A stretch of DNA of 64,000 nt. Source: Clostridia bacterium. GTDB lineage: Bacteria > Bacillota > Clostridia > CAKSNL01 > HGM11501. Position 1 is the first letter of the stretch. Each line of letters starts with the position of its first letter. This document shows positions 10,675-43,438 of this stretch, piece by piece. The stretch covers positions 17,004 through 81,003 of the forward strand of contig JAZNEB010000003.1 in NCBI GenBank assembly GCA_045588365.1, given 5' to 3'. Both the position numbers and the translations under genes were made by a program. The notes beneath the pieces are model-generated. The model saw nothing but the letters and a program-made list of their open reading frames with translations, ran no database searches and was not told where the DNA came from.

Positions 10675-11946
10675 ATGAAAACAAACTATGACAGTCTCAT
10701 GAAGGTCAATCCGCTTCTTGCAAAAAATTGCATAGAGGCGGAGGCCTTGGTCAAGACTTTCCCGAAAAAAGCGGCAATTTTATATAAAAAGGCGTTAAAT
10801 ACCTTTCTTGCCGTAATATGTGGCGATAACGATATTGCCTTTGACCGCCCGGGTGATCTGACTCTTATAAATATGATAGGAAAGGCATATTCCTACGGTG
10901 TAATAAGCAGGTACGAAAAGGGAGTTTTAGACGACTTGCGCTACTCGGCATATCTGGCGGAAAACCATGGGGCTGAAGACAAAGAACCCGATACAAAGGA
11001 ACTGTTGGAAAAGATCATCGCTTTTTATGTTATGGTTATGCGTTATTATCATCTTGAAAGCGAGGAATATTCTGAAGACAACCTTCCTTTGGGAAAATGC
11101 CATATGATAAGCGTAAAGAAAAACTTTGAAATGGATACTGCCTATGATAAGGTCTATCTGGCAAGTGAGGAGGATGGAGGCTTTGCGCTGGTTGCTCAGT
11201 ATGTGCGCCACCGCTCTGAGCTTGCGGACGAGGTTTTTGAGTTTCTGGAGACAGAAGATTTAAATAAAATTTTCTCCTCCTGCAAAAAGGTATTGAAGCC
11301 TGAAATTATAAGTCATCAGGAGGGAAATAATATAATTTCCGTGAAAACCAGCGTCCCTGAGGGCTTTGTAAGTCTTTCCTTTGAAGATTTTTCAAATCTT
11401 TACACAGAGCAGAGAGTTAAATTCATAGTTAACTTAGCCGAGGTTTTGTATAAGCTTCATACCTCTGACAAGCCCCTTTCTCTGGGAGGCTTTGAAACGG
11501 AGGATATATGGGTTTCCTACAAGGGCTTAAAGTGTGTTATATCGGGACTTGAATCTAAAATCAAAAGCTGTGAAGCTACGGAAGAAAATATATTAAATGA
11601 CGTTAAGAGCTTTGCTTTGGTTTGTGCAACCCTTTGCCCTGAATATGAAAAAATTCCCGTTGCGGGACTTATGATAAAGCATGTCCTTATGGGAAGCGGA
11701 AAAGCACTGATGGATAAAATCTATCCGGTTTTAAAAAAGGAAGCCGCTCATTTGGGTATGGAAGGTGTAACGTTAAAAGAAGCACAGATAAAACCCCCGG
11801 TGGATATTTACGAAAATCTCAAAGAAGAGCTTTCGGAAATAGAGGGAAAGGATTACAGCATAGAAGATTTTAATGCAGAAGAAAAAGAAGAAGCAACTGA
11901 AGATTTTACAGAGATGTACAGTAAAGTTTTTAAGCAGATGCATTAG
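10675..11946 (+). CDS. Hypothetical protein; N-terminal DUF4145/HEPN-like region plus degenerate kinase-like region
   Basis: 423-aa ORF with SD; domain guess by eye only. Confidence 0.55.
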   Translation: MKTNYDSLMKVNPLLAKNCIEAEALVKTFPKKAAILYKKALNTFLAVICGDNDIAFDRPGDLTLINMIGKAYSYGVISRYEKGVLDDLRYSAYLAENHGAEDKEPDTKELLEKIIAFYVMVMRYYHLESEEYSEDNLPLGKCHMISVKKNFEMDTAYDKVYLASEEDGGFALVAQYVRHRSELADEVFEFLETEDLNKIFSSCKKVLKPEIISHQEGNNIISVKTSVPEGFVSLSFEDFSNLYTEQRVKFIVNLAEVLYKLHTSDKPLSLGGFETEDIWVSYKGLKCVISGLESKIKSCEATEENILNDVKSFALVCATLCPEYEKIPVAGLMIKHVLMGSGKALMDKIYPVLKKEAAHLGMEGVTLKEAQIKPPVDIYENLKEELSEIEGKDYSIEDFNAEEKEEATEDFTEMYSKVFKQMH

Positions 11947-39126: not shown

Positions 39127-39255
39127 CGAAATTGGTAAAAAATGGAAAAAACTTCTTGCAAAAATTGGTAATTTATGGTAAAATGCAATTAGGACAAGGA
39201 AAGAATAAAAAACAGAAGAAAAATGAAATTAAATGAAGAAAGGATTTGTAAGAAA

Positions 39256-40026
39256 ATGAGTGAAAAGGTAAAGGTTTTGGTAATTGACGACAACAAGGAG
39301 ATTGAGGAAGGAATAAGAGGCTACATAGAGAGCAAAGGGGAAACGGAAATTGAGCTTCTGGGCTTTGCCCAGAATGGTAAAGAAGGACTTGAGAAAATAA
39401 GCCTCCTTTCTCCCGATGCCATAATACTTGATATAGTAATGCCCGTAATGGACGGAATCGGTGTTTTAAAGGCCCTTTCAAAATGTGCGAAGAAGCCTGC
39501 AATAGTGGTGCTTTCCGCCCTTTCGGGAGAATATGTTTCAAATATGGTGTCCTTATACGGAGCAGACTATTATATGACCAAGCCTGCATCTTATGAAACT
39601 TTGTTTGAAAGAGTAAAAATGCTTTGTAACAGCTTTTCCTATAAAAAGGAAGACAATATAAAAGAAGATGAGAACCGCCTGGAATTAAAGGTAACAGGTG
39701 TAATTCACGATGTGGGAATTCCTGCCAATATAAAGGGCTATCAGTATTTAAGAGATGCCATTATGATGACGGTTCACGACAATGAGCTTATGCATGCTGT
39801 TACAAAACAGCTTTATCCCATGGTTGCAAAAAGACATAAAACCACGGCGTCAAGAGTGGAAAGAGCTATACGCCACGCCATTGAGGTTGCCTGCACCAGA
39901 GGAAATGAGGAGTTTTTCTACAAGCTTTTCGGCTATACCGTAAGCACATTAAAGGGAAAGCCCACAAATTCGGAATTCATCGCCTTAATTGCAGATAAAT
40001 TAAGACTTGAAAAGAATATAGGATAA
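39256..40026 (+). CDS. spo0A: Sporulation master regulator Spo0A
   Basis: Receiver LDIVMP; [16 protein letters not shown]; [14 protein letters not shown]; KPTNSEFIA. Confidence 0.98.
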
Positions 40027-40158
40027 GAAAAAAGCCTTTGTGCCGAAGCACAAAGGTTTTTTTATCACAAAAAAATTAGAGTTTTATAAGTAATCAATTT
40101 AAAAGGGGAGGTTATGTTGACTAAAAGCATTAAAAATGATAATATAATCTAAAAAAGC

Positions 40159-40599
40159 CTCCCTTGTGTAAAGGGAGGGGGACCACCGAAGGTGGTGGAG
40201 GGATTGTAATGGAATATAAGCACAATAAAGAAATTGTACCGCTTGCAAAGATACTCCGAAAGAATATGACAAAGGAAGAAAAGCATCTTTGGTATGATTA
40301 CTTAAGAGAATACCCCGTTAGGTTTATAAGACAGAAAGTTATAAGAAAGTATATTGTTGATTTTTACTGTGCCAAAGCAAAGCTTGTTGTTGAATTGGAT
40401 GGATCCGGGCATTATGACGATAAAGGTATAGAAAATGACGCTTTGAGAACAGGTTTTCTAGAACAATTTGGATTAAAAGTTATAAGAATATCAAATCTTG
40501 ATATAAATAAAAACTTTGAGGGAGTATGTATGTTTATTGATAATGAAATAAAACAATCCCTCAGTCAACTTCGTTGACAGCTCCCTTTACACAAGGGAG
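40159..40599. mobile_element. Candidate REP-flanked nuclease element: inverted structured ends 40159-40207 and 40553-40599
   Basis: Perfect 19-bp IR CTCCCTTGTGTAAAGGGAG / CTCCCTTTACACAAGGGAG and 10-bp IR GAGGGATTGT / ACAATCCCTC around a DUF559 gene. Confidence 0.7.
40209..40577 (+). CDS. DUF559 / Vsr-like PD-(D/E)xK endonuclease
   Basis: AKILRKNMTKEEKHLW, RQKVI..YIVDFYC..AKLVVELDGSGH, LKVIRISN. Confidence 0.92.
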   Translation: MEYKHNKEIVPLAKILRKNMTKEEKHLWYDYLREYPVRFIRQKVIRKYIVDFYCAKAKLVVELDGSGHYDDKGIENDALRTGFLEQFGLKVIRISNLDINKNFEGVCMFIDNEIKQSLSQLR

Positions 40600-40759
40600 C
40601 CTTTTTTTGTAAGTGTTGGGGTTTACAAAATTATCTTGATATTCAATAATCTTTGTGATATAATCATTATGCATAGAATTAGTTTGGCGACTATCGGAGT
40701 TTGCGTTTTTTATGCGTCTGCTTCGGTAGGCGCATTTTTTTATGGAAAGGAGGATTTTG

Positions 40760-40972
40760 ATGCCTTGGACATTATTGGTGGTGCTTTTCTGGGTGGCGTT
40801 GCTGGCTTTAGCAATATATGTATATTTCATTCCTTCAATTGTTGCAAATAACAAACAACATCCCCAAAAGACGGCTATTTTATTGTTGAACATATTTCTG
40901 GGGTGGACTTATCTTGGTTGGGTAGTTGCCCTTGTATGGGCAAATGTAAAAGAAAAGAATGAATTTAAATGA
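40760..40972 (+). CDS. Superinfection immunity protein (T4 Imm-like family)
   Basis: YFIPSIVA...H....ILLLNIFLGWT.LGWVVALVWA; SD AAAGGAGG. Confidence 0.85.
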   Translation: MPWTLLVVLFWVALLALAIYVYFIPSIVANNKQHPQKTAILLLNIFLGWTYLGWVVALVWANVKEKNEFK

Positions 40973-41214
40973 TAAGAGAAGATGAAACAGACGAAAAATT
41001 GTCCGTTTCATCTTCTCTTGATTTTTTATGTAAAAAGTCAATTTCTTCTTGTAATCTCAACAAACCAATTATTCCACAGAAAATAAAGTTATAGGTTTTT
41101 CTTCCTATAACTCGATTTTCTGTAAAACGGACTTTTCGTTGAAATCTCAGAGAGAAATTGAATTGTAAAGGCATTTTTATATGCATAATTGGTTGTGTTG
41201 TAAAGTTCCACACA

Positions 41215-41472
41215 TTATAAACAATATTAGAGATTTTATAAAACCGATTATAAAAAATGCTTGCTCTTTGATAAAAGATTGCAGAAGATTTATAAAAAAT
41301 ATTTGGAGTTTTATAAATCATTGACCGACTTTTTATAAAATTAATGCGGATATTTTATAAAAGTTGCTTGATTACTTTATAAAATCAGCATATGGGTTTT
41401 ATAATTTCTGTCCTGCCCTTTTATAAACAGTTGCCGATGTTTTATAAAAGATGGACATTTTTTTATAAAAAC
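41215..41472. repeat. Periodic array of TTTATAAA-like cores at 21-22 bp spacing
   Basis: ATAA at 41250, 41271, 41292, 41313, 41335, 41357, 41379, 41401, 41423, 41444, 41465 (also 41217, 41238). Confidence 0.8.
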
Positions 41473-41672
41473 TGTTAGAAATGCCGATTTAACAACAACA
41501 TAAACAATTTTTACCGCTTATTATATAAGTGTCATCTATAAGTGTCGGAAAATTGTAGAAGATTTTCCGACACCATTATTTTTGTTGATTTCACCCCCTA
41601 AAAAGTATAGTTTTTTAGAAAAATTAATAAGTATAAGGGGGTGGTAAATGGTCAAAAGTGTTGGAGTATAAT

Positions 41673-42125
41673 TCATATTTGATTATTCAAAACAGTTGCC
41701 ATTATTAAGATTATTATATATATTAAGTACATATATTTTTTAGCAAGTTGTTTTTCAATAATGCAGACATAATTTTTATCAAGAAAAAAATCTATTAAAA
41801 AGAATAGACAATATAGAGTAATAGCTACAAATAAAGGTATAGACAAAACATTGTATTCAAATGCAGTTTTAAAATCAAAATTTAAGATTGATATGAACCC
41901 TCTTGTCATACCACAACCAAAACAAGAAATACCAAAAATGCTTTTTATAGGGCATAAAGACACAGAAAAAATCTTTGTTAAAAAGACCAATATAACAAAA
42001 AAGACAAACCCTACACTCAAAGAATGTAAGGTGTGTCTTTTTATTTTTGATAGTTGTTTGTATTTAGACCAAAGGATACCCATAACTATCTCTAAAACCA
42101 CCAGACAAGATAGAAATAAGGTCAA
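41673..42125 (-). CDS. DUF2752 family membrane protein (true start may be near 42083)
   Basis: CPIKSIFGISCFGCGMTRGF signature. Confidence 0.85.
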   Translation of the reverse strand: MTLFLSCLVVLEIVMGILWSKYKQLSKIKRHTLHSLSVGFVFFVILVFLTKIFSVSLCPIKSIFGISCFGCGMTRGFISILNFDFKTAFEYNVLSIPLFVAITLYCLFFLIDFFLDKNYVCIIEKQLAKKYMYLIYIIILIMATVLNNQI

Positions 42126-42507
42126 TTATTGTTCCGATTGCACATAAACCATATGTAAAGAAATGCAAAACACCACTACCTACTTTTCCAACATACATTC
42201 TGTGAAGACCACCAAGACCAAAGAAACCTAAAATACATAAAATCAATGCAACCATTTTACTCTTTCTAGGACCAAATCCAAAACCACCATTGAGATTAGT
42301 ATTGGTGTTTGTGCTTTCATTTGAATTAGTAATATTAATAGTTGGTTGACCCCCACTTGATTGTTTTGCCTCATCAAGGACATTGCCAAGGTCATCTTTA
42401 CAATACATTCTTCCTTTTACTTCTACAAGACAATCTTTGCAGAATGGTTTGCCACAGTATGCACACATTCCTTGTGCATCAATTTCTGGGTGATTAGTAC
42501 ATTTCAT
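42064..42507 (-). CDS. B-box-like zinc finger plus TM2 domain protein
   Basis: CTNHP....CAYCGKPFCKDC; KSKMVALILC...GGLHRMYVGK...IDLISI. Confidence 0.88.
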   Translation of the reverse strand: MKCTNHPEIDAQGMCAYCGKPFCKDCLVEVKGRMYCKDDLGNVLDEAKQSSGGQPTINITNSNESTNTNTNLNGGFGFGPRKSKMVALILCILGFFGLGGLHRMYVGKVGSGVLHFFTYGLCAIGTIIDLISILSGGFRDSYGYPLV

Positions 42508-42794
42508 TTTTTATCTCCTCCGTTTTTATCTTCTTCTGATAAATAATTTTTAACTTTATAAAATATTGACCTAGCCACAAAAAGAACAGTTATTCCAACA
42601 ACAACACAACTAATGAAACCACCTAATATTAAGACAGGTATCATATTAGAAAAATTAAGGTTTTCAAAATCAAACAATGTTGTATTAGAAGAACCGACTA
42701 AAAGGGCAATGCCAACAGTCAATACTACACAAATTACAGACAAAATAATCAATAGCATAATTTGTGAAAAAAATGACTTGTTTTTCAAGCTCAT
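42504..42794 (-). CDS. Hypothetical two-TM membrane protein
   Basis: SD AGGAGG; stop overlaps the start of the TM2 gene. Confidence 0.7.
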   Translation of the reverse strand: MSLKNKSFFSQIMLLIILSVICVVLTVGIALLVGSSNTTLFDFENLNFSNMIPVLILGGFISCVVVGITVLFVARSIFYKVKNYLSEEDKNGGDKK

Positions 42795-42938
42795 CGCCTC
42801 CTGTTATGACATATTATAACAGAAATCTACATAACTGTCAATAGAAAATACAGATTTTAGTTAATGTTTTAAGATTTTGTATTCTGTTAATGATAAGTGT
42901 GTAGTGTTAAAATTAAAATAAAGGTAGGTGTTAATGTT

Positions 42939-43277
42939 TTGAACTATGAATTATTAGGAAACCAGATTAGGAAACAAAGAAAAGAGAAAAAATATACATT
43001 GGAGCAATTAGCAGAGAAATTGGATGTCTCAACTACTTTTATAGGACAAATAGAAAGAGCAAAAGGAATACCTTCGCTTGAAACATTGGTAAAGATTGCA
43101 AATGTTCTTGAAATATCAATAGACAGTTTGCTTTTTGGAGATTTGAATAACAAATCTGGAAGCAACCATTTTGTGAAGAAAGTTGCAGAATTAACACAAA
43201 CCTTTACACCTAAAGAAAAGGAACTATTGTTAAGAAATATAGAAATAATCAATGAGTATAGGAACAATGCTAAATAA
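42939..43277 (+). CDS. XRE family HTH transcriptional regulator
   Basis: TLEQLAEKLDVSTTFIGQIERA..PSLETLVKIA. Confidence 0.9.
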   Translation: MNYELLGNQIRKQRKEKKYTLEQLAEKLDVSTTFIGQIERAKGIPSLETLVKIANVLEISIDSLLFGDLNNKSGSNHFVKKVAELTQTFTPKEKELLLRNIEIINEYRNNAK

Positions 43278-43438
43278 GGCATTGTTTTTTCTTTTTAAAA
43301 GTGTAAAATCAATTTTTCTGCGTAATCTCAACAAAAAAATTATTCCACAGAAAATAAAGTTATAGGTTTTTCTTCTATAAATTGACATGGCAAAAAAAAT
43401 ATGTTATAATAATTAAATTAAAAAAGGAGGGCGTTTTT

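Follow-up and report, generated by a model that had tools for sequence, protein, structure and literature searches.

The stretch of DNA analysed here, 64 kb of a contig from a Clostridia bacterium and referred to below as the window, contains a small gene for a nuclease of the DUF559 family directly after the terminator of spo0A. The gene is enclosed by two inverted, structured ends, here called arms, and gene and arms together are called the cassette. From the arms the gene takes its ribosome-binding site, its final codons and its stop codon, and the terminators in them face outward. Judged by its sequence, the unit of gene plus arms looks like an undescribed kind of selfish DNA. The features of the locus are listed below by position in the window, with the evidence for each in parentheses.

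39223..40026, plus strand: spo0A, the upstream host gene, outside the element (Pfam Spo0A_C, E 1.6e-41; Response_reg, E 6e-19)
40028..40063, unstranded: spo0A terminator hairpin (inverted repeat of 16 nucleotides (nt), 94%; terminator-like site; blastn homology boundary at 40063/40064)
40064..40150, plus strand: upstream module with a promoter-like site, common to the closest cassette subfamily only (blastn, alignment, promoter scan)
40117-40122 and 40140-40145, plus strand: promoter-like site, TTGACT and TAATAT separated by a 17-nt spacer, with TG before the second hexamer (promoter scan)
40151..40207, plus strand: left arm (inverted-repeat search, folding, family conservation, three-way covariation)
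40151-40157, 40158-40165, 40166-40170 and 40171-40178, plus strand: A-run and G, pyrimidine strand (Y), loop and purine strand (R) of the left arm
40182-40196 and 40197-40205, plus strand: second hairpin of the left arm, with a GAA loop, and its purine third-strand tract, which is the gene's Shine-Dalgarno (SD) sequence
40209..40577, plus strand: DUF559 nuclease gene, 122 aa, intact, ATG at 40209 and TGA at 40575-40577 (Pfam, alignment)
40553..40608, minus strand: right arm, with the same architecture (inverted-repeat search, folding)
40555-40563, 40580-40600 and 40602-40608: complement of the third-strand tract, which codes for QSL, outer hairpin and T-run of the right arm
40564-40578: second hairpin of the right arm, with a TTC loop (GAA on the minus strand), which holds the TGA stop
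40609..40620, plus strand: short stretch beyond the T-run that is still common to the closest subfamily, the outer limit of the unit (blastn ends at 40615-40620 in loci L007-L022; right-flank alignment)

Arms and nuclease gene of the cassette

Inverted-repeat search recovered the arms as an outer pair (40151-40177 and 40581-40607; 27 nt, 96% complementary) and an inner pair (40184-40207 and 40553-40576; 24 nt, 79% complementary). Each strand of the window has exactly one copy of the outer palindrome's 19-mer, two in all, with a chance expectation of 0.04, and two or more matches were found in 0 of 100 shuffles. Each arm consists of an 8-bp pyrimidine/purine hairpin, a second hairpin that is variable and still pairs, and a mirror purine tract. 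When folded as single-stranded DNA (ssDNA), all four arm strands gave two hairpins (Z -4.9 to -6.8); none of 200 shuffles reached a fold as good. In these predicted folds, which model Watson-Crick pairs only, the inner, or third, tract was left unpaired.

The gene is built into this architecture at both of its ends. The left inner tract contains a GGAGG SD sequence 7 nt ahead of the ATG, and the right arm encodes the last residues of the protein, QSLSQLR, together with the stop codon. Both outer hairpins are terminator-like and face outward, the right one on the plus strand and the left one, with its T-run, on the minus strand. An earlier reading, made from the letters of this stretch alone (the sequence-only reading), had proposed inverted ends around a DUF559 gene, with the SD supplied by the left end and the stop codon inside the right end; the inverted arms were confirmed by the searches above, and the two signals lie in the tract at 40197-40205 and at 40575-40577, respectively. 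DUF559 is the sole open reading frame (ORF) between the arms, and no recombinase or transposase was found near it among the ORFs and Pfam matches of the window. Across 39900-40800 there was no credible Rfam family, and no intron family up to an E value of 10.

The product of the ORF is a DUF559 protein (PF04480; E 7.3e-28, 97.1 bits compared with a cut-off of 20.6, residues 12-113). In an alignment of 41 proteins, the residues that are invariant in the family were all present in the window protein, including D51, E62, D64, H68, R80 and R93. The family profile matched Protein Data Bank (PDB) entry 3HRL, a DUF559 'endonuclease-like protein', with an E value of 2.2e-17. The second-best match was a weak one to PDB entry 3R3P, the catalytic domain of I-Bth0305I (E 0.028, 17.5 bits, positions 30-111); the single protein sequence from the window gave no match to this domain. 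The family is plainly homologous to Escherichia coli YcjD, with an hhalign probability of 99.5% and 43% identity across 100 columns, and the NCBIfam YcjD equivalog model, NF007294, scored 63.1 bits, below its cut-off of 218. One table of a review places Vsr, DUF559 and 3R3P in a single clade of the PD-(D/E)XK superfamily (PMC3424549). There was no cytosine methyltransferase partner beside the gene, of the kind found in the dcm-vsr arrangement of E. coli, its neighbours being spo0A and a gene of the Imm_superinfect family. Searches of PADLOC and PHROGs gave weak partial matches only.

The inner purine tract repeats the outer hairpin's purine strand in mirror image, a relation that the sequence-only reading had not described, and the three strands co-vary across the 129 arms that were parsed. 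At one position, T.A+A was found in 114 arms and C.G+G in 15, with 0 discordant; at a second position the corresponding numbers were 126, 2 and 1. The terminal pair was C.G+G in 56 arms, G.C+T in 70 and discordant in 3, and this concordance covers left arms of the 'right' type as well as one right arm of the 'left' type. The mirror rule was also applied to every pyrimidine-rich 8-bp hairpin in all of the DNA fetched, with the tract sought within 8-45 nt. In 428 of 805 hairpin orientations a tract agreed with the mirror at 7 or more of the 8 positions, compared with 133 for the direct control and 140 for the shuffled control; each hairpin was counted on both strands, so the ceiling is about half of the 805 orientations. 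Half or more of the copies obeyed the rule in 30 of the 43 purine-arm types (11 and 6 in the controls), and the types that obeyed it include several quite different arm sequences.

The second hairpin behaves differently in that its structure is kept and its sequence is not, as the sequence-only reading had noted for the two middle hairpins of the window. Its contiguous Watson-Crick stem had a mean length of 5.47 bp compared with 2.72 bp after shuffling, the highest of 200 shuffle means being 2.93. There were 43 distinct 5' stems in 85 distinct arms; the closing pair was C-G in 76 of the 85, and 36 had a GNA triloop, which was GAA in 25.

From the three-way covariation we infer that each arm may form an intrastrand purine-motif DNA triplex with the second hairpin as its connector. 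Unusual stability in DNA is a property of C-GNA-G mini-hairpins. RNA does not form purine-motif triplexes, according to the part of the literature on these motifs that was available (Holder et al. 2015, PMC4666352). For these two reasons the arms look like DNA-level, not RNA-level, structures.

Distribution and history of the cassette

A scan of one genome per species gave 326 stretches that encode relatives of the protein, of which the best 80 were fetched; these 80 and the two genes of the own genome make up the 82 loci analysed (L numbers denote loci, G numbers genomes and C numbers contigs). The 80 relatives were 61-91% identical, all came from Clostridia assemblies, and many lay near contig ends. 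With a lenient pattern, a left arm was found at 74 of the 82 loci, a right arm at 76, and both inverted arms at 71. In other words, a gene between inverted structured repeats, which the sequence-only reading had compared to repetitive extragenic palindromic (REP) sequences around RAYT genes, is a trait of the family and not of this locus only. Among the arms that were missed, two were cut by contig ends and three had an interrupted outer hairpin. At two unrelated loci (L017:1390-1500 and L041:1410-1500) the same insert of about 27 nt interrupts the loop of the left outer hairpin, and L017 has an additional arm inserted between promoter and gene. Another locus, L050 (1501-1866), has an internal stop codon, and the loop of its right outer hairpin is in the orientation opposite to all others.

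Constraint was analysed with a set of 63 full-length genes, of which 42 loci fit a strict arm pattern, giving 861 pairs. Across these pairs pS was 0.645 and pN 0.155, and dN/dS was approximately 0.13 for the window gene compared with L007 and L012. The 31-nt arm cores, loop included, were 96.8% (left) and 100% (right) identical in the 42 loci, which are upper estimates because the pattern pre-selects. Synonymous sites are close to saturation while the arms are nearly invariant. Taken together, pS and pN, dN/dS and the arm-core identities show purifying selection on the DUF559 gene and, for the arms, either a constraint much stronger than the gene's or homogenisation.

Just outside the outer hairpins, the consensus of the left flank is AAAAG, with G at -1 in all 52 loci, and that of the right flank is CTTT(TT), with C at +1 in 51 of the 52. 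There was no adjacent direct repeat at 51 of 52 loci, and thus no target duplication. In the closest subfamily (L007-L023), with 86-91% protein identity to the window, blastn homology extends further than the arms: it begins at 40063/40064 in seven loci (L012, L007, L010, L009, L013, L014 and L023) and at 40084/40112 in nine others, and it ends at 40615-40620 in most, with three matches ending at 40606, 40672 and 40540. The promoter-like core was kept in an alignment of 10 loci, and further upstream every locus differs. An mRNA started from the promoter-like site would begin at the left arm. Right flanks are alike for at least 200 nt in L007-L021, where left flanks differ, and L016 has the window's right-hand promoter. 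The candidate 'minimal selfish element' of the sequence-only reading is therefore amended in two respects: a triplex-type third strand belongs to its arms, and the unit of the closest subfamily begins at about 40064 and includes the upstream module with the promoter-like site. A mini-ORF upstream of the gene (an SD and 12 codons at 40114) was unconserved in the subfamily and was rejected in favour of the promoter reading.

The geometry is not restricted to one arm sequence. A second DUF559 lineage in the genus (paralogues L236, L237, L243 and L244) has outer hairpins of the GGGGAAGG type in the same arrangement, and all DUF559 genes examined in the genus had Y-loop-R hairpins of their own type next to them, on one side or on both.

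The own assembly (1.98 Mb, 25 contigs, 92% complete) contained 2 DUF559 genes, both flanked by arms. At up to 3 mismatches the outer palindrome had 4 matches in this genome, two in the window, one upstream of the second gene (on contig C12) and one in a remnant on contig C22. This amounts to 3 arm loci in 1.98 Mb, two cassettes and one gene-less remnant. The sequence-only reading had called for a count of solo and paired copies; both solo and doublet forms do exist in relatives, and the abundance in this genome is not REP-like. The C12 cassette has the same architecture as that of the window. Its outer loops are unlike the window's yet are reverse complements of each other, the stem of its right outer hairpin shows compensatory changes, and at its right end the inner arm and second hairpin are duplicated in tandem. 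The two proteins are 58% identical, and the left arms match at 46 of 48 nt. The left arm of the window is a mosaic in which the outer loop and the last bases match the closest subfamily and the second hairpin is of the resident C12 type, which is also found in genome G008. This single case suggests, from the sequences compared, that short patches may be exchanged between arms within a lineage. The remnant (L005:1440-1570; C22, about 11230-11360) is a complete left-type arm whose third tract runs directly into a degenerate right inner arm; it is preceded by a second pyrimidine/purine hairpin, and a direct repeat is common to both. An 11-nt match to the inner arm at about 5974 of the window has no adjoining hairpin, is apparently coding, and was taken as a chance match.

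Comparison with relatives showed that the gene is not vertically conserved behind spo0A. No DUF559 gene was found within the fetched flanks of the spo0A loci of 19 relatives, and spo0A lay near a DUF559 homologue in only 1 of 80 loci, on the opposite strand and with a 40% identical product. In G008, G003, G002 and G007, of the same genus, and in G013, of the same family, spo0A is directly followed by an XRE-cupin gene. In the window that gene lies at about 43439, i.e. 3.4 kb downstream of spo0A, and G004 has a different 1.3-kb insert at this place. The islet between them (40027-43400) is absent from these five relatives, and the cassette is at its left edge, directly after the spo0A terminator. 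The remaining islet genes encode an Imm_superinfect protein, a DUF2752 protein, a TM2 and zinc-ribbon protein, a small membrane protein and an XRE regulator. Pieces of the islet matched scattered places in relatives, and no homologous islet was found in them, either with or without the cassette. The region after spo0A is thus a variable islet and the cassette an accessory insertion in it. The sequence-only reading had asked for empty sites after spo0A in relatives; the gene is absent there, and no clean empty site was obtained, since the comparison gives a 3.4-kb indel.

Elsewhere, homologous loci lie in unrelated gene contexts. Across the order, a DUF559 match was found in 8 of 14 genomes (0-3 each) and the outer palindrome in 10 of 14 (0-9 each), with 0 matches for a control written backwards. 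A cassette of the C12 type is 86% identical over 438 nt in G008, where the orthologues of the genes that flank it here are on other contigs, and vice versa. The cassette probably reached the spo0A locus by horizontal transfer and recombination. What was found is not repeats beside random genes, homologues lacking the ends, or vertical conservation at this locus, the three patterns that the sequence-only reading had named as speaking against itself.

Arms also occur without the gene. Doublets L124 and L125 consist of a left arm, a spacer of 27-33 nt and a right arm, and in one of them, L125, the gene's start context has been retained along with its final codons. Four solo right arms in G029 (L119, L120, L122 and L123) have the same flank, a remnant of the gene's 3' end, and therefore a truncated cassette has multiplied or is part of a larger repeat; at a fifth, L121, the contig ends and the arm alone is present. 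The exact 19-mer was found in 90 viral contigs, and 80 loci (730 kb) among these contained 138 complete arms, together with 18 convergent doublets. Spacers in these doublets measure 3-62 nt, and one of 43 nt recurs at 6 of them (L217, L223). Phage and plasmid collections gave short arm matches only, in 3 phage records and 1 plasmid record. None of the sequencing runs contained the locus itself (share at most 0.15), and four ruminant gut runs were compared. In these four runs 154-472 contigs matched, mainly at the arms, and contigs of two runs join the arms across the position of the gene with 21-29 other letters between them. One RNA run has coverage over the arms and over part of a related gene, which does not show transcription. 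Doublet spacers are otherwise unrelated to the gene, and the arms are therefore a general container of which the nuclease gene is one possible content. Beside one arm doublet (L247:947-1159, in G008:C14) there is a different dispersed repeat of about 190 nt, which recurs on several contigs both in this genome and in relatives.

Explanations and closest known systems

As judged by these comparisons of sequence, the cassette is shown to be an evolutionarily mobile, tightly interlocked unit whose arms are selected as folded DNA. The explanation that we prefer, and to which we give an even chance, is that 40151-40608 of the window, or about 40064-40620 with the promoter module, is one copy of a small selfish DUF559 cassette whose nuclease acts on its arms. 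Each arm, on ssDNA, would fold into a hairpin and an intrastrand purine-motif triplex connected by the second hairpin, and this would happen on the top strand at the left end and on the bottom strand at the right end. The nuclease would recognise the folded arm and nick it at or near the fold, and from this nick the arm-bounded unit would be copied, either to new sites or into further copies of the arm. The same nuclease activity could act in trans on gene-less doublets. Such a system would work like REPIN/RAYT, with a different enzyme class and a different DNA fold. A broader and more tentative proposal, which we think possible and would not yet rely on, is that DUF559 nucleases, YcjD included, are the missing partners of bacterial hairpin and triplex repeats, that they would recognise and nick a shape of folded ssDNA (a hairpin with its purine strand clasped by a mirror third strand), and that this would drive copying of arm-bounded DNA free of a transposase, with cassettes as the autonomous and doublets as the non-autonomous members.

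DUF559 is among the commonest uncharacterised nuclease families, and for about thirty years neither an origin nor an enzyme has been known for triplex and hairpin repeats such as BoxC/PIT. The interlock of ribosome-binding site and stop codon, the three-way covariation and the near-invariant arms give a testable hypothesis, that the nuclease cuts the folded arm. If true, the cassette would represent a new class of mobile DNA with a structure-reading nuclease, and it would be a possible source of instability in gut bacteria and a possible tool. If the nuclease does not cut the arms, they would still show with unusual clarity that a non-B DNA fold is under selection.

The elements most similar to the cassette share some of its properties. 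IS200/IS605 transposons are small, have subterminal hairpins that are recognised as folded ssDNA, and make no target duplication. The cassette differs from them in that it has neither TnpA nor TnpB and has true inverted-repeat ends with a triplex-type tract. It has inverted ends like a DDE-type transposon or a MITE (miniature inverted-repeat transposable element), but neither a transposase nor, at 51 of 52 loci, a target-site duplication. The REP/REPIN-RAYT systems, as far as they are described in the available part of Bertels and Rainey (2011, PMC3337134), also have a small enzyme gene between inverted hairpin-forming repeats, together with dispersed gene-less inverted doublets and solo repeats, and presumed single-strand folding; the cassette, for its part, lacks target duplication. 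The enzyme there is an HUH tyrosine transposase similar to the TnpA of IS200/IS605, whereas here it has the restriction-endonuclease fold of DUF559. The arms of the cassette are, in addition, composite (two hairpins and a mirror tract) and contain the SD and stop codon of the gene; this genome has 3 loci, not hundreds, and two diverged genes with a patchy distribution as opposed to one vertical copy; and the hosts are gut Clostridia.

BoxC, PIT and TMECO motifs resemble the arms in having pyrimidine-purine-purine blocks in which the third block mirrors the second, and in being conserved, dispersed and near variable loci (PMC4666352). In the arms, by contrast, the connector is a covarying hairpin of 8-34 nt, the arms stand in inverted pairs around a gene, and the triplex is proposed from sequence. 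The available text of the BoxC/PIT/TMECO paper describes triplex-motif loci as unstable, reports no transposase or integrase remnants beside the motifs and no nuclease or transposase partner, and does not contain the words 'nuclease' or 'endonuclease' (PMC4666352). The 'EDxHD' homing endonucleases such as I-Bth0305I (3R3P), in what was available of their description (PMC3239194), are selfish nucleases of the restriction fold and of the same structural clade, with a similarity to the window protein that is marginal. Unlike them, the cassette has a free-standing intergenic gene with its own promoter-like site and terminator and without an intron, intein or fractured gene, and its product is a single domain of 122 aa that lacks extra DNA-binding domains and is bounded by structured inverted arms. 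YcjD and 3HRL are clear DUF559 homologues, and no function is known for either. In E. coli K-12 the flanks of ycjD (L245:11300-11830), read by eye, do not have the arm layout of the window cassette. By the same inspection, a 16-bp hairpin contains the ycjD start codon in its 3' arm, and about 40 nt of the 3' coding end recur about 70 nt downstream, past a pyrimidine/purine-rich insert. No published description of a hairpin-armed DUF559 cassette was found in full-text searches of the literature, supplements aside.

Several observations weigh against a mobile cassette whose nuclease acts on its arms. The action of the nuclease on the arms is proposed from sequence, and E. coli Vsr was not detectably similar to the protein (hhalign with the 41-sequence profile, probability 0.3%, 12 columns). 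The mirror rule is imperfect in some arm types, with 7 of 8 positions in the GGGGAAGG type, for example, and purine-rich controls reach about 17% mirror matches. The connector of 8-34 nt (the range of the parsing pattern) is longer than the loops of 1-6 nt with which the BoxC, PIT and TMECO motifs were searched (Holder et al. 2015, PMC4666352), the first loop being 5 nt. The arms can equally be understood as RNA signals, namely a 5' stem-loop, an SD left free and a terminator, and the arm-core identities rest on loci that the pattern had preselected (42 of 63). There is no sign of recent movement in this genome, which has two cassettes with 58% identical proteins and one remnant, and the closest cassette from elsewhere has a DNA identity of about 85%. 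The search for a precise filled/empty pair found none: relatives differ here by a mosaic indel of 3.4 kb, which means that a larger piece may have brought the cassette in, and the other places where an empty site was sought (the C12 locus compared with G008 and G002, the flanks of G008:C5 and the flanks of the G008:C14 doublet) were all non-collinear. G006, which is 76% complete, has 6 palindromes and no DUF559 gene, and tblastn found 0 DUF559 genes in the 80 viral-contig loci with their 138 arms; something other than this nuclease may mobilise the arms.

A second explanation, which we consider rather unlikely, is that only the gene is selfish and spreads by homing. The DUF559 protein would cut a gene-less doublet, for example at the near-palindrome where the tracts meet, and recombinational repair that uses a gene-bearing copy would place the gene between the arms; the arms would serve as recognition site and homology, and the dispersed doublets would be resident 'alleles'. 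Consistent with this, the gene is always located exactly between two third-strand tracts, there are minimal doublets whose tracts meet at a 3-nt spacer (L168, and the own C22 remnant), and doublet spacers are otherwise unrelated to the gene, including the 43-nt spacer at 6 doublets, of which three forward copies are closely alike. The left arm of the window has the resident C12-type second hairpin and not that of its closest gene relatives, the best structural relative outside DUF559 by profile is a homing endonuclease domain (3R3P, E 0.028), and target duplications are lacking. Homing would, however, have to use arms of about 55 nt, which is short for homologous repair, and it leaves the dispersal of the doublets themselves unexplained. 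Moreover, second-hairpin types mostly follow protein clades, i.e. gene and arms usually descend together, and the L125 doublet looks like an internal deletion of a full cassette. We give a similarly low probability to the arms being an independent repeat, spread by host replication or repair or by another enzyme, with the DUF559 gene as a trapped passenger or as a caretaker that processes the replication-blocking folds, lowers their cost and does not move them. Arms without DUF559 in the 80 viral-contig loci and in G006 speak for such a repeat, as does the instability of triplex-motif loci with no transposase or integrase nearby in the available text of PMC4666352. In the four ruminant gut runs, arms were covered by far more contigs than the gene body, a comparison of contig depth that includes other organisms and in which diverged genes fail the 88% likeness limit. 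What argues against a passenger or caretaker is the tight and conserved interlock, arm sequence making up the SD, the final codons and the stop of the gene at 71 of 82 loci, and that every DUF559 gene examined in the genus has a hairpin of its own type on at least one side; chance capture would not repeat this geometry.

Two further explanations appear less probable than these. An invertible or regulatory module, in which the inverted arms allow the segment to flip or are mainly RNA and transcription signals (a stabilising 5' stem-loop and a terminator at either side) for a nuclease of a defence or repair type and the patchiness results from ordinary horizontal transfer, seems to us improbable. 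DUF559 is enriched among predicted targets of programmed inversion (odds ratio 14.3, in the part of Milman et al., PMC9881135, that was available), both outer hairpins resemble outward-facing terminators, the promoter would start an mRNA at the left arm, and L050 has a flipped outer loop. The mirror covariation and the gene-less arms in both orientations nevertheless lack an explanation at the RNA level, there is no recombinase nearby, the PADLOC matches were weak and partial, and no inverted form was seen in the contigs of the sequencing runs, though no run covered the locus well. An ordinary, vertically inherited gene between palindromes that are its own terminator and its neighbour's, an idea that we can hardly credit, would fit the terminator-like appearance of the two outer hairpins. 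It is contradicted by the absence of the gene after spo0A in 19 of 19 relatives' loci, by the same arms in unrelated contexts, by arm conservation far above that of synonymous sites, and by the patchy distribution of DUF559 matches, in 8 of 14 genomes of the order.

Neighbouring features

The gene immediately downstream of the DUF559 gene encodes a small membrane protein of the Imm_superinfect family. Between a near-consensus promoter (40636-40664) and this gene there is a 64-nt leader (40677-40740) with a terminator hairpin at its end. Two congeneric genomes have the leader with 100% identity and others with 88-92%, the changes in the hairpin being compensatory, and in other genomes the leader is located ahead of different genes for membrane or secreted proteins. 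It had no Rfam match, and its contig depth was high in the gut runs, including an RNA run. The leader is a candidate attenuator, riboswitch-like leader or small RNA.

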